DNA of 64,000 nt from Escherichia coli (GTDB lineage Bacteria > Pseudomonadota > Gammaproteobacteria > Enterobacterales > Enterobacteriaceae): assembly GCF_965641715.1 (NCBI RefSeq), contig NZ_OZ282453.1; one strand, 5' to 3'. This document shows, piece after piece, positions 12,613 through 50,428 of the stretch. Below the pieces are notes generated by a model that was not told the origin of the DNA, made no database searches, and was given only the letters and a program-made list of their open reading frames with translations. Each line of letters starts with the position of its first letter. Position 1 is the first letter of the stretch. Position numbers and translations under genes: made by a program.

Positions 12613-13176
12613 TCATTCGCAGCGCTGATCTGAGGCGCTGCCCTCTTTCGCACATATTCTGTTTTGTCGTATCGCCAGCACAGCCTGCCGACATTGTTCG
12701 GTGACATTGGCAATATCATGGTTGATATCAATGCGCACAATATCCTGTTCATCTGCTTGTGGACGCTCCAGCGCCTCAAACTGACTTTTTAGTAACGCTA
12801 CCGGCATAAAATGCCCAGCCCGACGCTGCATTCGCGCGAGGATAGTTTCATAGTCGCCATCTAACCAGAGGAAATGAACATGGGGGCTACCCTTGCGTAA
12901 AATATCACGATACTGTTTTTTTAATGATGAACAGACAATAAATCCTGTTTCATTCTTTTTATAAAGACTGTATGAAGCATCATTTAAGCGTTCCAGCCAG
13001 GGAAGTCGATCTTCATCAGATAATGGAATACCCTGCGACATTTTATCTATATTTTTGGCTGGATGAAGATCGTCACCATCAATAAATTTAGCAGATAATA
13101 ACGCGGCAACCTTGCTACCAATTAATGTTTTACCACTCCCTGAAACGCCCATCAAAATAAAGCTTTCACCCGCCAT
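12613..13176 (-). CDS. idnK: Gluconokinase (thermosensitive, idonate pathway)
   Basis: 187 aa; P-loop GVSGSGKT; convergent with ahr with a 3-nt gap. Confidence 0.9.
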   Translation of the reverse strand: MAGESFILMGVSGSGKTLIGSKVAALLSAKFIDGDDLHPAKNIDKMSQGIPLSDEDRLPWLERLNDASYSLYKKNETGFIVCSSLKKQYRDILRKGSPHVHFLWLDGDYETILARMQRRAGHFMPVALLKSQFEALERPQADEQDIVRIDINHDIANVTEQCRQAVLAIRQNRICAKEGSASDQRCE

Positions 13177-13277
13177 TTAAAATCTCCTGAATCATCTTAC
13201 CTGCTGCGATACTACGCCTGGTGGCATAATAATTTCACGTTTTTTTATTTCTGCTGATAAGAATTACAAGGCACATC

Positions 13278-13293
13278 ACGTTATGCGTAACAT
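13278..13293. promoter_or_regulatory. GntR/IdnR-type operator-like site in idnK-idnD divergent promoter region
   Basis: ACGTTA-TGCG-TAACAT, one mismatch from the ATGTTA-N4-TAACAT consensus as recalled; a second GTAACA half-site lies at 13299-13304. Confidence 0.45.
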
Positions 13294-13392
13294 AGTAATG
13301 TAACAATTTTCTGACGTGATCTTCATCACAAATAATGACAATTAAAACCGCTTAAATGCTTCCGAGGTGTCTACCTGACCAGTGAGGAATTT

Positions 13393-14424
13393 ATGCAAGT
13401 GAAAACACAGTCCTGCGTTGTTGCGGGCAAGAAAACTGTTGCCGTTACCGAGCAGACGATAGATTGGAATAATAATGGAACATTAGTACAAATAACCCGA
13501 GGTGGAATTTGCGGTTCCGATTTACATTATTATCAGGAAGGAAAAGTAGGTAATTTCATGATAAAGGCACCGATGGTGTTAGGTCATGAAGTTATCGGTA
13601 AAGTTATTCATAGCGACTCATCAGAATTACATGAAGGGCAAACGGTAGCCATTAATCCGTCTAAACCGTGCGGTCACTGCAAATACTGCATTGAACATAA
13701 CGAGAATCAGTGTACAGAGATGCGTTTTTTTGGCAGTGCCATGTATTTCCCTCATGTTGATGGTGGCTTTACCCGTTATAAAATGGTCGAAACGTCGCAA
13801 TGTGTCCCTTATCCGGCCAAAGCTGACGAAAAGGTTATGGCTTTTGCCGAACCTTTAGCCGTCGCGATTCATGCCGCACATCAGGCCGGCGAGTTACAGG
13901 GCAAGCGAGTATTTATTTCTGGTGTTGGGCCCATTGGCTGCCTGATTGTCAGTGCTGTGAAAACACTGGGGGCCGCGGAAATTGTCTGTGCCGATGTGAG
14001 TCCCCGTTCCCTTTCGCTGGGCAAAGAGATGGGGGCGGATGTGCTCGTAAACCCACAAAACGACGACATGGATCACTGGAAAGCGGAAAAAGGCTATTTC
14101 GATGTCAGCTTTGAAGTGTCCGGTCATCCTTCATCAGTGAATACCTGTCTGGAGGTCACTCGTGCACGCGGCGTAATGGTGCAGGTAGGTATGGGAGGCG
14201 CGATGGCAGAATTCCCAATGATGGCATTGATTGGTAAGGAGATTTCACTCAAAGGCTCTTTCCGTTTTACCAGCGAATTTAATACCGCAGTGTCATGGCT
14301 GGCGAATGGCGTTATCAATCCACTGCCTTTACTGAGTGCTGAATATCCCTTCACTGACCTGGAAGAGGCGCTACGTTTCGCCGGTGATAAAACCCAGGCA
14401 GCAAAAGTCCAGCTTGTTTTCTAA
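13393..14424 (+). CDS. idnD: L-idonate 5-dehydrogenase
   Basis: 343 aa; Zn-ADH motifs (GICGSDLHYY, GHE). Confidence 0.9.
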   Translation: MQVKTQSCVVAGKKTVAVTEQTIDWNNNGTLVQITRGGICGSDLHYYQEGKVGNFMIKAPMVLGHEVIGKVIHSDSSELHEGQTVAINPSKPCGHCKYCIEHNENQCTEMRFFGSAMYFPHVDGGFTRYKMVETSQCVPYPAKADEKVMAFAEPLAVAIHAAHQAGELQGKRVFISGVGPIGCLIVSAVKTLGAAEIVCADVSPRSLSLGKEMGADVLVNPQNDDMDHWKAEKGYFDVSFEVSGHPSSVNTCLEVTRARGVMVQVGMGGAMAEFPMMALIGKEISLKGSFRFTSEFNTAVSWLANGVINPLPLLSAEYPFTDLEEALRFAGDKTQAAKVQLVF

Positions 14425-14447
14425 GAGATAAATAAAGGAATAATACA

Positions 14448-15212
14448 ATGAACGATCTATTTTCACTGGCAGGAAAAAATATCTTGATTACCGGTTCAGC
14501 ACAGGGCATTGGCTTTTTACTGGCAACCGGCCTGGGTAAATATGGCGCACAAATAATTATTAATGATATTACTGCCGAACGCGCAGAACTTGCTGTAGAA
14601 AAACTCCACCAGGAGGGTATTCAGGCCGTTGCCGCACCTTTTAATGTTACTCATAAACATGAAATTGATGCCGCCGTTGAACATATCGAAAAGGACATCG
14701 GCCCCATTGATGTGCTGGTGAATAACGCCGGTATCCAGCGCCGTCATCCTTTTACTGAGTTCCCTGAACAAGAGTGGAATGATGTGATCGCAGTAAACCA
14801 GACCGCCGTGTTCCTGGTATCGCAAGCGGTAACTCGTCACATGGTTGAACGCAAGGCAGGTAAAGTTATTAATATTTGCTCGATGCAAAGCGAACTGGGA
14901 CGTGACACCATCACCCCTTATGCCGCATCGAAAGGGGCGGTAAAAATGCTCACCCGCGGCATGTGCGTCGAGCTGGCGCGCCACAATATTCAGGTCAACG
15001 GTATTGCGCCGGGCTATTTCAAAACAGAAATGACTAAAGCACTGGTTGAGGACGAAGCCTTCACCGCCTGGTTGTGCAAACGGACCCCCGCCGCACGCTG
15101 GGGAGATCCGCAGGAACTGATTGGTGCTGCGGTGTTCCTTTCTTCAAAAGCCTCTGATTTCGTAAACGGCCACCTGTTGTTTGTTGATGGCGGCATGTTA
15201 GTGGCTGTTTAA
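14448..15212 (+). CDS. idnO: 5-keto-D-gluconate 5-reductase (SDR family)
   Basis: 254 aa; SDR Rossmann motif TGSAQGIG and catalytic YxxxK region. Confidence 0.9.
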   Translation: MNDLFSLAGKNILITGSAQGIGFLLATGLGKYGAQIIINDITAERAELAVEKLHQEGIQAVAAPFNVTHKHEIDAAVEHIEKDIGPIDVLVNNAGIQRRHPFTEFPEQEWNDVIAVNQTAVFLVSQAVTRHMVERKAGKVINICSMQSELGRDTITPYAASKGAVKMLTRGMCVELARHNIQVNGIAPGYFKTEMTKALVEDEAFTAWLCKRTPAARWGDPQELIGAAVFLSSKASDFVNGHLLFVDGGMLVAV

Positions 15213-15274
15213 CAGCCCCCCCTACGTGCAGCGCGAAAGCGCTGCTTTTCTGGCACTAATAAGAGATAAAGACT

Positions 15275-16594
15275 ATGCCATTAATCATTATTGCGGCAGG
15301 CGTCGCGCTGCTTCTTATCCTGATGATCGGCTTTAAAGTTAACGGCTTTATTGCCCTCGTTCTGGTAGCTGCCGTCGTCGGATTTGCCGAAGGGATGGAT
15401 GCACAGGCCGTCCTGCACTCTATACAAAATGGTATCGGCAGCACGCTCGGCGGGCTGGCAATGATCCTCGGTTTCGGGGCCATGTTAGGCAAGCTGATTT
15501 CTGATACGGGTGCGGCACAACGTATCGCCACTACGCTGATTGCTACTTTTGGTAAAAAACGCGTGCAATGGGCGCTAGTGATCACCGGTCTGGTTGTGGG
15601 CCTCGCCATGTTTTTTGAAGTGGGTTTTGTCCTGCTGTTGCCGTTGGTATTTACCATCGTAGCATCATCAGGATTACCCCTGTTGTATGTTGGCGTACCA
15701 ATGGTAGCAGCGCTCTCTGTAACCCACTGTTTTCTGCCGCCACATCCAGGGCCTACTGCCATCGCGACTATCTTTGAGGCTAATCTCGGAACGACTTTAC
15801 TGTATGGATTTATCATTACCATTCCGACAGTTATTGTCGCAGGACCGCTGTTTTCTAAACTGCTAACTCGCTTTGAGAAAGCACCACCGGAAGGCTTATT
15901 TAATCCTCATCTGTTTAGCGAAGAGGAGATGCCCTCCTTCTGGAACAGTATTTTCGCTGCCGTGATCCCGGTCATCCTGATGGCTATCGCCGCCGTTTGT
16001 GAAATTACGTTACCGAAAACTAACACCGTGCGCCTCTTCTTTGAATTTGTCGGTAACCCTGCCGTTGCGCTGTTTATTGCCATTGTTATTGCGATGTTCA
16101 CACTGGGCCGACGTAATGGACGCACCATCGAGCAAATCATGGATATCATTGGGGATTCTATAGGCGCTATCGCGATGATTGTGTTTATTATCGCTGGCGG
16201 CGGCGCGTTTAAGCAGGTATTAGTAGATAGCGGTGTCGGGCACTATATTTCACACTTAATGACCGGAACTACGCTTTCGCCGTTATTGATGTGCTGGACT
16301 GTTGCGGCGCTGTTGCGTATCGCTCTGGGCTCTGCCACCGTCGCGGCCATTACCACCGCGGGTGTGGTGTTGCCGATTATCAACGTTACCCATGCCGATC
16401 CCGCTTTAATGGTACTGGCAACCGGTGCGGGCAGCGTGATCGCGTCACACGTAAACGACCCTGGCTTCTGGCTATTTAAAGGGTATTTTAATCTGACGGT
16501 TGGTGAAACGTTGCGTACCTGGACGGTGATGGAAACCCTTATTTCTATTATGGGTTTGCTGGGCGTGTTAGCCATTAACGCCGTATTGCACTGA
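15275..16594 (+). CDS. idnT: Gluconate/idonate transporter (GntP family)
   Basis: 439 aa, highly hydrophobic polytopic membrane protein. Confidence 0.9.
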   Translation: MPLIIIAAGVALLLILMIGFKVNGFIALVLVAAVVGFAEGMDAQAVLHSIQNGIGSTLGGLAMILGFGAMLGKLISDTGAAQRIATTLIATFGKKRVQWALVITGLVVGLAMFFEVGFVLLLPLVFTIVASSGLPLLYVGVPMVAALSVTHCFLPPHPGPTAIATIFEANLGTTLLYGFIITIPTVIVAGPLFSKLLTRFEKAPPEGLFNPHLFSEEEMPSFWNSIFAAVIPVILMAIAAVCEITLPKTNTVRLFFEFVGNPAVALFIAIVIAMFTLGRRNGRTIEQIMDIIGDSIGAIAMIVFIIAGGGAFKQVLVDSGVGHYISHLMTGTTLSPLLMCWTVAALLRIALGSATVAAITTAGVVLPIINVTHADPALMVLATGAGSVIASHVNDPGFWLFKGYFNLTVGETLRTWTVMETLISIMGLLGVLAINAVLH

Positions 16595-16660
16595 AAGAAT
16601 AAAATATTGTGATGTAGTTTCGGGGGAAGATTGAAGATTCCCCCGACGTTGGGAGAAGTT

Positions 16661-17659
16661 ATGCGCAATCACAGAATTTCTTTACAGGATATCGCTACGC
16701 TGGCTGGCGTAACAAAAATGACCGTGAGTCGTTATATCCGCTCGCCGAAAAAGGTGGCAAAGGAAACAGGCGAGCGCATCGCCAAAATTATGGAAGAGAT
16801 CAATTATATCCCTAATCGCGCTCCCGGCATGTTGTTGAATGCACAAAGTTATACCCTCGGTATCTTGATTCCGTCATTTCAAAATCAACTCTTCGCTGAC
16901 ATTCTCGCGGGAATAGAATCCGTCACCTCTGAGCATAATTATCAGACCCTTATTGCTAATTACAATTACGATCGCGATTCCGAAGAAGAGTCGGTGATTA
17001 ACCTGCTCTCTTATAACATTGACGGGATTATACTTTCGGAAAAATATCACACCATCAGGACGGTGAAATTTCTGCGTTCAGCCACCATTCCGGTCGTGGA
17101 ATTGATGGATGTACAGGGAGAACGGCTGGATATGGAGGTCGGTTTTGATAATCGGCAGGCCGCTTTTGACATGGTGTGTACCATGCTGGAGAAGCGAGTC
17201 AGGCACAAAATTCTGTATCTCGGTTCCAAAGATGACACCCGCGATGAACAGCGTTATCAGGGGTATTGCGATGCGATGATGCTGCATAATCTTTCCCCAT
17301 TACGCATGAATCCACGCGCCATCTCATCCATTCATTTAGGAATGCAGTTAATGCGTGATGCCCTTAGCGCAAACCCGGATTTAGACGGTGTATTTTGCAC
17401 CAATGACGATATTGCGATGGGTGCGCTTCTGCTGTGCCGCGAGCGAAACCTCGCCGTGCCAGAACAAATTTCCATTGCGGGTTTTCATGGGCTGGAGATT
17501 GGCAGGCAAATGATCCCAAGCCTCGCCAGCGTAATTACTCCCCGTTTTGATATTGGTCGGATGGCCGCCCAAATGTTGCTGAGCAAAATTAAAAATAACG
17601 ATCACAACCACAACACTGTTGACCTCGGGTATCAGATTTATCACGGCAACACGCTTTAG
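16661..17659 (+). CDS. idnR: LacI-family transcriptional regulator of the idn operon
   Basis: 332 aa starting [17 protein letters not shown] (HTH); start trimmed to the ATG with GGGAGAAG RBS. Confidence 0.88.
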
Positions 17660-17736
17660 GTTATTTTCTCTTCATTACACGTATTCTCTTTGCCGGACGT
17701 TGCCTATACTCCAGGCAGGAAACTGGAGGATATCTC

Positions 17737-19239
17737 ATGAGCGAACCCCTGTTAATTGCCCGCACGCCGGACACAGAACTATTTTTACTGCCGGGAATGG
17801 CTAACCGTCACGGGCTGATTACTGGCGCAACGGGGACGGGTAAAACTGTCACGCTGCAAAAACTGGCGGAGTCTCTATCGGAAATCGGTGTTCCGGTGTT
17901 TATGGCTGATGTGAAAGGCGATCTGACCGGTATCGCGCAGGCAGGAACGGCGTCGGAAAAACTGCTCACAAGGCTTAAAAATATCGGCGTCAATGACTGG
18001 CAACCGCATGCCAATCCGGTGGTGGTGTGGGATATCTTTGGCGAGAAAGGCCACCCGGTGCGGGCGACGGTTTCGGATCTGGGGCCGCTGTTGCTGGCGC
18101 GGCTGTTGAATCTCAACGATGTGCAATCTGGCGTGCTGAATATCATCTTCCGCATTGCTGACGATCAGGGGCTGTTACTGCTCGACTTTAAAGATCTGCG
18201 GGCAATTACCCAGTACATCGGCGATAACGCCAAATCCTTCCAGAATCAGTACGGAAATATCAGTAGCGCATCGGTTGGTGCCATCCAGCGCGGGCTGTTG
18301 TCGCTGGAACAGCAAGGCGCAGCACACTTCTTTGGTGAGCCGATGCTGGATATCAAAGACTGGATGCGCACCGATGCCAACGGTAAAGGCGTTATCAATA
18401 TCCTCAGCGCCGAGAAACTTTATCAGATGCCGAAACTGTACGCCGCCAGCCTGCTGTGGATGCTTTCAGAGTTGTATGAACAATTGCCGGAAGCGGGCGA
18501 TCTGGAGAAACCAAAACTGGTGTTTTTCTTCGACGAGGCACATCTGCTGTTTAACGATGCCCCGCAGGTACTGCTGGATAAGATTGAGCAGGTGATAAGG
18601 CTTATTCGCTCAAAAGGCGTGGGCGTCTGGTTCGTTTCGCAAAACCCGTCTGATATTCCAGATAATGTGCTCGGCCAGCTCGGTAATCGCGTTCAACACG
18701 CTTTGCGTGCTTTTACGCCCAAAGATCAGAAAGCGGTAAAAGCTGCGGCGCAAACCATGCGCCCCAACCCTGCATTTGATACGGAAAAGGCAATCCAGGA
18801 ACTGGGGACCGGCGAGGCGTTAATCTCGTTTCTCGATGCAAAAGGAAGTCCTTCTGTGGTGGAACGGGCGATGGTGATTGCGCCTTGTTCGCGGATGGGA
18901 CCGGTGACGGAAGATGAGCGTAATGGCTTGATTAATCACTCTCCGGTGTATGGCAAGTACGAGGATGACGTGGACCGGGAATCCGCCTATGAGATGTTGC
19001 AAAAAGGCTTTCAGGCCAGTAACGAGCAGCAAAATAATCCCCCCGCGAAAGGGAAAGAGGTAGCGGTAGATGACGGCATTCTTGGTGGATTGAAGGATAT
19101 TTTGTTCGGCACTACCGGACCACGCGGCGGGAAGAAAGATGGTGTTGTGCAAACAATGGCGAAAAGCGCCGCCCGCCAGGTGACGAATCAGATTGTACGC
19201 GGGATGTTGGGGAGTTTGCTGGGGGGGAGAAAAAGGTAA
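17737..19239 (+). CDS. yjgR: DUF853-family P-loop ATPase
   Basis: 500 aa; Walker A GATGTGKT, Walker B-like FFFDEAH. Confidence 0.85.
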
Positions 19240-23382: not shown

Positions 23383-23470
<88 letters not shown>

Positions 23471-23521
23471 CTGCGGTGTATACCTGATGCGTATTTAAAT
23501 CCACCACAAGAAGCCCCATTT

Positions 23522-47049: not shown

Positions 47050-47200
<151 letters not shown>

Positions 47201-50323: not shown

Positions 50324-50428
50324 TTGCCGGATACGGTGCACCTGTAGGCCTGATAAGACGCATCAAGCGTCGCATCAGGCACTATGCTCAAATGCCGGAT
50401 GCGGCGTGAACGCCTTATCCGGCCTACG
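50324..50428. repeat. REP/BIME cluster
   Basis: GCCGGATACGG..., GTAGGCCTGATAAGACGCATC..., GCCGGATGCGGCGTGAACGCCTTATCCGGCCTAC. Confidence 0.85.

Follow-up and report, generated by a model that had tools for sequence, protein, structure and literature searches.

Intercistronic stabiliser hairpins give differential expression of genes within an operon, the malE-malF REP element of E. coli and the intercistronic hairpins of the Rhodobacter puf operon being examples. Stem-loops also shape the ends of Rho-dependent E. coli transcripts, whose precise steady-state 3' ends lie at stable stem-loops that guard against PNPase and RNase II (PMC6061677). Such protective stem-loops resemble terminators in stem energy, are poor in U and have no A-tract before them (PMC6061677; Dar & Sorek 2018). 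Their RNA 3' ends are expected to lie just after the stem and to respond to bicyclomycin and to pnp/rnb mutations. The hairpin analysed here, which lies between idnT and idnR of E. coli, is an undescribed but ordinary element: an intercistronic mRNA stem-loop without a U-tract. It probably sets expression of the regulator gene apart from that of the enzyme and transporter genes.

The window (the whole stretch of E. coli DNA that was analysed, 64,000 nucleotides long) contains the idn (GntII) locus at 12613-17659. The names of idnK (12613-13176, - strand), idnD (13393-14424, +) and idnO (14448-15212, +), like those of idnT and idnR, were taken from the RefSeq annotation of identical DNA. The coding sequence of idnT (15275-16594, +) ends with the stop TGA at 16592-94, and that of idnR (16661-17659, +) begins with the ATG at 16661-63. 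For a window coordinate x, the MG1655 position is 4507800 - x on the minus strand. The supplement of Adams et al. 2021 has an entry antisense to idnO at MG1655 4493012 (+), which corresponds to about 14788 (-) in the window. A Citrobacter-type idnK-idnDOTR copy was also found on a Klebsiella pneumoniae conjugative IncF plasmid (locus L033 of the collection).

The idnT-idnR spacer of 66 nt reads AAGAAUAAAAUAUUGUGAUGUAGUU-UCGGGGGAA-GAUUGAAGA-UUCCCCCGA-CGUU-GGGAGA-AGUU-AUG. The hairpin, UCGGGGGAA-GAUUGAAGA-UUCCCCCGA (16620..16646, +), is 27 nt in total, with a perfect 9-bp stem and a 9-nt loop (16629..16637, +). Its 5' arm (16620..16628, +) is purine- and G-rich and pairs with the pyrimidine- and C-rich 3' arm (16638..16646, +). 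Six of the nine pairs are G-C or C-G, as in the GC-rich stems of terminators (about 5-15 bp). The minimum free energy of -16.3 kcal/mol lies below that of dinucleotide-shuffled sequences (z = -3.5). An AU-rich spacer of 25 nt, predicted to be single-stranded (16595..16619, +), leads from the idnT stop to the hairpin. On the other side, a 4-nt CGUU spacer without a U-tract (16647..16650, +) leads to the idnR Shine-Dalgarno (SD) sequence GGGAGA (16651-56, +), which together with the ATG occupies 16651..16663; both SD and ATG were invariant in the alignments. The loop also holds a TTG (16631-16633, +) in frame with the idnR ATG, which would add 10 codons (ORF 16631..17659). This start is probably unused: other genera do not conserve it, and the G-run lies too near for proper SD spacing.

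The first-pass annotation had placed an inverted repeat CGGGGGA-N11-TCCCCCG, lacking a U-tract, between the idnT stop and the idnR SD. The placement was confirmed, and the motif is present at 16621-16645, with one match in the window and none in shuffles. The span given for it, 16621-16647, was right at its start and ran 1-2 nt too far at its end. The 7-bp repeat is likewise present as part of a longer helix, in which U16620-A16646 and A16628-U16638 pair too. The missing U-tract was borne out: the 8 nt 3' of the stem, CGUUGGGA, contain two U, and the terminator scan gave no flag.

Within a single genome, a hairpin of this kind is not beyond chance. At a threshold of -16 kcal/mol or lower, 0.6% of 36-nt segments fold, equal to 86 distinct sites in the 64-kb window, and stable structure also occurs in three of the five other co-directional junctions of the window. 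This abundance of comparable hairpins speaks for the explanation that the hairpin has no function, being either what is left of a former idnDOT terminator, now in decay, or a palindrome that arose by chance; the ordinary hairpins that follow idnT in loci where idnT is the terminal gene (Tatumella, Paramixta and Rosenbergiella) speak for it too. Of 5426 complete E. coli genomes, 2053 carried the idn locus, in each case on the chromosome. Across the 501-bp junction query all 2053 loci shared at least 99% identity, and therefore offered no useful within-species variation. The hairpin was raised above chance because its position and structure are conserved across genera.

A few E. coli genomes differed in the arms. 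In E. coli 2013C-4830 (L044), one G of the 5' arm and one C of the 3' arm were lost in the equivalent of 16622-16644, leaving exactly one pair fewer. Seven other E. coli genomes had a 1-nt indel in a single arm only. These arm indels are either genuine or artefacts of homopolymer assembly; because the seven genomes show one-arm indels, assembly error stays possible for the symmetric loss as well.

Orthologous junctions, defined as idnT (C-terminus ...LNAILH*) followed by a LacI-type regulator, were gathered in three ways: by an IdnR scan of the genome collection, by a plasmid search, and from IdnT homologues with their contigs. The 20 junctions came from E. coli, seven Citrobacter lineages (including the Citrobacter freundii complex and three C. 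amalonaticus variants), S. enterica diarizonae, Trabulsiella, Phytobacter, Kosakonia, UBA3516, Enterobacter (two), Mangrovibacter, Pectobacterium, Brenneria, Musicola, Sodalis and Erwinia. A strong spacer hairpin of -16 to -30 kcal/mol was present in all 20, a count of related lineages and not of independent events. The arm sequences varied by lineage and complementarity was kept: CGGGGGAA/UUCCCCCG in E. coli, CCGGGGAGC/GCUCCCCGG in Citrobacter, CCCGGGAAAAGUGG/CCGCUUUUCCCGGG in Kosakonia, ACCGGAGGCGC/GCGCCGCCGGU in Enterobacter, CAGGGCAGGAAG/CUUCCUGCCCUG in Brenneria and UCCCGGUCUGCCGG/CUGCCGGACCGGGA in Sodalis. The loop varied among orthologues in both sequence and length.

Covariation across genera could not be computed from a MAFFT alignment, for which RNAalifold gave only a 4-pair core, as helix length and register vary between the lineages. 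An arm-swap energy test and within-clade alignments were used for this reason. In the arm-swap test, every 5' arm was joined to every 3' arm via a neutral GAAA loop. The mean energy was -21.3 kcal/mol for cognate arms versus -12.6 kcal/mol for non-cognate arms, and the cognate sum was reached in 0 of 20,000 permutations, the lineages compared again being related and not independent. A covariance model built on Citrobacter missed the hairpin of E. coli, which confirms that structure and not sequence is conserved.

The within-clade alignments contained compensatory changes. Between Kosakonia and Phytobacter, two adjacent pairs changed from G-C to A-U, and one pair changed from G-C to A-U between C. 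amalonaticus S646 and the other Citrobacter. Among nine Citrobacter sequences, the invariant columns were 16 of 18 in the stem, 1 of 10 in the loop and 1 of 6 in the 5' flank (stem versus the 2 of 16 in loop and 5' flank together, Fisher p = 1.4e-5). The two stem columns that did vary were the partners in one compensatory pair. The explanation without function is disfavoured on two counts, the stems being invariant or compensated while loops and flanks drift, and the hairpin being kept in every lineage across family-level divergence; it is considered very improbable.

The strand of the folding molecule could also be assessed. A purine stood on the 5' arm in 168 of 241 pairs from 21 lineages. 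There were 11 G-U or U-G pairs on the + strand, each of which would be an A-C mismatch in the antisense RNA, and one mismatch of the opposite type, so the mRNA-sense RNA is indicated as the folding molecule. Taken from these sequence comparisons, the hairpin is a structure of the mRNA-sense RNA whose base-paired helix is under selection in all lineages examined in which idnR follows idnT. The differential expression of idnR proposed in the first-pass annotation fits this selection on RNA structure in every idnT-idnR junction examined, and the proposal is partly supported.

Several known classes of element were excluded. A REP/BIME repeat was rejected, as the hairpin had one copy in the window (up to 3 mismatches allowed) and was found at exactly one place per genome in the 2053 E. 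coli genomes. Very stable palindromes that do look like REP/BIME elements, GCCGGAUG...CAUCCGGC, lie elsewhere in the window at 23383-23472, 37143-37178, 47067-47176, 50347-50424 and 56631-56666, and are unrelated to the idn hairpin. A permissive scan of 15000-18000 with Rfam 15 gave only a Guanidine-II match (E = 5.9), a chance hit inside idnT on the other strand. A LacI-family (IdnR/GntR) operator was rejected on the grounds that the arm sequences differ between genera and covary, and that the Citrobacter model misses the E. coli site. A GntR-type palindrome, searched with a possibly inexact consensus, had no match in the window, a result that says little about operators. The known IdnR/GntR sites are located upstream of idnK and idnD (PMC4052901).

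A canonical intrinsic terminator was likewise excluded, since a U-tract is missing 3' of the stem in 19 of the 20 lineages. In these, 0-3 of the 8 nt 3' of the stem were U; the exception was Erwinia, in which the equivalent hairpin is followed by UUUUCACGUUU. The consensus terminator scan flagged the idnT-idnR hairpin in neither E. coli nor Citrobacter, and the Erwinia site stayed under the threshold. The same observations bear on a weaker version of this function, in which the hairpin would be a transcriptional attenuator that pauses or partly terminates RNA polymerase, so that a fraction of transcripts enters idnR. The terminator-like stem energy, the polarity of a G-rich 5' arm and a C-rich 3' arm, and the U-containing Erwinia sequence agree with an attenuator, against which stand the few U of the other lineages and the negative scan. 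Hairpins without a U-tract are inefficient terminators of E. coli RNA polymerase, and this too counts against it. Weak attenuation is accordingly regarded as improbable, and the partial termination suggested in the first-pass annotation, which the anatomy does not support, becomes the weaker of its two options.

The scan did flag a different hairpin of the operon. In the idnO-idnT spacer, GCAGCGC-GAAA-GCGCUGC followed by UUUUCUGG (15228..15253, +) was flagged as terminator-like in both E. coli and Citrobacter. The sequence GCAGCGC-N4-GCGCUGC with its U-run is conserved in Citrobacter, S. diarizonae, Trabulsiella, Phytobacter, Kosakonia, UBA3516 and Enterobacter, and Pectobacteriaceae have an analogue at idnO-idnT, GGCGGCGA...UCGCUGCC UUUAUU. 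The idnO-idnT hairpin probably serves as an attenuator inside the operon, separating idnDO from idnT. Judged by these features, the operon holds two conserved intercistronic hairpins of different types. A canonical-looking terminator hairpin at idnO|idnT means that attenuation would already be part of the design of the operon, a further point for attenuation at idnT-idnR. In some Citrobacter (L007, L012), the idnO-idnT spacer was 187 nt versus 62 nt in E. coli, owing to a long palindromic insertion of about 125 nt. This insertion may be an ERIC/IRU repeat, to judge by its resemblance to the ERIC2 primer sequence.

The region upstream of the hairpin was considered with regard to protection of a 5' end. 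A separate idnR message could arise if RNase E cut within the AU-rich spacer or if a weak promoter lay inside the operon, and the hairpin could shield this message from 5'-end-dependent decay. The E. coli 25-nt spacer is suited to this by its AU-richness and its predicted single-strandedness, and IdnR would have to pre-exist induction, which makes some operon-independent expression plausible. Against this, the consensus scan found no sigma-70-like promoter between the idnT 3' end and idnR, and the spacer is neither AU-rich nor conserved in other genera, that of Citrobacter being GACGGUCAUCA. The supplement of the transcription start site (TSS) study that was searched also had no idnR TSS or processing-site entry. 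A 5' protective hairpin is therefore thought quite unlikely.

The position of the hairpin relative to idnR was more constant than its distance from idnT. In Enterobacteriaceae, only 1-5 nt separate the end of the stem from the SD and 10-14 nt separate it from the idnR ATG; the stem lies 17-25 nt from the ATG in Pectobacteriaceae, Sodalis and Erwinia. The gap between the idnT stop and the hairpin is far less uniform (9 to 40 nt), with no conservation of its sequence. A pure 3'-end barrier needs no such fixed position, and therefore a role in idnR translation is hinted at. The hairpin could be a translational damper or insulator, with its helix on the standby region 4 nt upstream of the SD, or with a block to ribosomes coming from the idnT stop, keeping IdnR low and independent of idnT translation. 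Besides the constant spacing, the invariant SD and ATG beside the hairpin agree with this explanation, and a regulator at the end of an operon would be expected to be needed in small amounts. Other junctions disagree with it. The main helix of Trabulsiella and Mangrovibacter lies 35-37 nt from the ATG, and no conserved anti-SD partner was found: predicted SD pairing showed no consistent rise or fall against controls in which the upstream spacer had been shuffled, and different lineages had different predicted partners. On a Kosakonia cowanii plasmid, an IdnR-like regulator after an MFS transporter has no GC-rich hairpin before its SD (n = 1). On balance a damper or insulator, possible but rather unlikely, is the chief rival of the barrier explanation given below.

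The arrangement on this plasmid (L034, 1799-4978) is idnO - MFS transporter - IdnR-like LacI regulator, with a transporter of another family and a hairpin-free spacer of 102 nt.

The more specific form, a dedicated translational insulator in which the helix on the idnR standby site stops re-initiation by ribosomes leaving idnT, is held with clearly less confidence and is judged doubtful. If it were true, IdnR would be synthesised at a low set-point whatever the induction of the operon, which would limit the positive autoregulatory loop. The polarity of a purine-rich 5' arm and a pyrimidine-rich 3' arm would then be part of the mechanism and not the relic of a terminator.

The explanation tentatively favoured, held at somewhat less than even confidence, is that the hairpin is a protective stem-loop without a U-tract, which marks the 3' end of a stable idnDOT mRNA and thereby uncouples idnR. 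It is favoured because the features of the hairpin, namely terminator-like energy, a U-poor 3' side and no A-tract before the stem, match those of protective 3' stem-loops without a U-tract (PMC6061677). The stable fold, its presence at all 20 junctions, the covarying arms and the lack of a sigma-70-like promoter before idnR in the consensus scan also speak for it. The transcript stabilisation offered by the first-pass annotation is in this respect plausible and preferred, its mechanism being drawn by analogy. As a protective stem-loop, the hairpin would act post-transcriptionally as a barrier to 3'-to-5' exonucleases (PNPase and RNase II). Transcripts would end inside idnR, either by Rho-dependent termination, the regulator gene being probably weakly translated, or by endonuclease cleavage. 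Such transcripts would be degraded from the 3' side as far as the stem base, giving a stable idnDOT message with an end near 16646-16648. The idnR segment would decay, so that a single promoter would yield more enzyme and transporter mRNA than regulator mRNA. Together with the terminator-like idnO|idnT hairpin, a graded expression of D,O > T > R would result.

The C/G ratio was 1.5-1.75, above the 90th percentile of the operon, at 16816-16970 (+) inside idnR, compared with 0.9-1.0 over the first ~150 nt after the stem. This segment may be a rut-like region, which would lend the barrier explanation weak support given its distance of ~170 nt. The finding that stable hairpins are common at co-directional junctions in general counts against the barrier explanation.

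The E. coli 3'-end (Term-seq) and TSS supplements searched had no idnT or idnR entries. For the Term-seq maps this is expected, as the operon is silent in the media used and is induced only by idonate or 5-ketogluconate. The literature searched on idn and gntH/gntW gave no 3'-end, TSS or expression data for the idnT-idnR junction.

If the hairpin is a protective stem-loop, two hairpin types would set the stoichiometry of enzyme, transporter and regulator: a U-tract attenuator at idnO|idnT and a barrier without a U-tract at idnT|idnR. The idn operon would then show, in compact and testable form, how a catabolic operon with positive autoregulation keeps its activator low. It would also provide an intra-operon stem-loop without a U-tract that is backed by covariation, beyond 3'-end mapping alone. 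The engineering of idnR or idnT constructs should take the hairpin into account. No general principle is altered by it.

The idnT-idnR hairpin resembles intrinsic terminators and attenuators in its GC-rich stem, its G-rich 5' arm and C-rich 3' arm, and its similar stem length and energy. It differs from intrinsic terminators in having no U-tract, a short U-run occurring in Erwinia only, and in being directly followed by an SD. Compared with REP/BIME elements, it is single-copy and lacks the REP consensus. Like the stem-loops of PMC6061677, it sits where an upstream message could end, and a stretch of C>G further downstream may correspond to theirs. It differs from them in being intra-operon, 4 nt from the next SD and not after a terminal gene, and in being known from sequence alone; the C>G region that adjoins the stem in those termini begins ~170 nt downstream in idn. 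In contrast to the malE-malF REP element, the idnT-idnR hairpin is no REP/BIME repeat and is only 27 nt long, and its effect on half-life is a predicted one. It is similar to the malE-malF REP and puf hairpins in its intra-operon location, in its position after the more-needed genes and before a less-needed gene, and in its proposed role as an exonuclease barrier.
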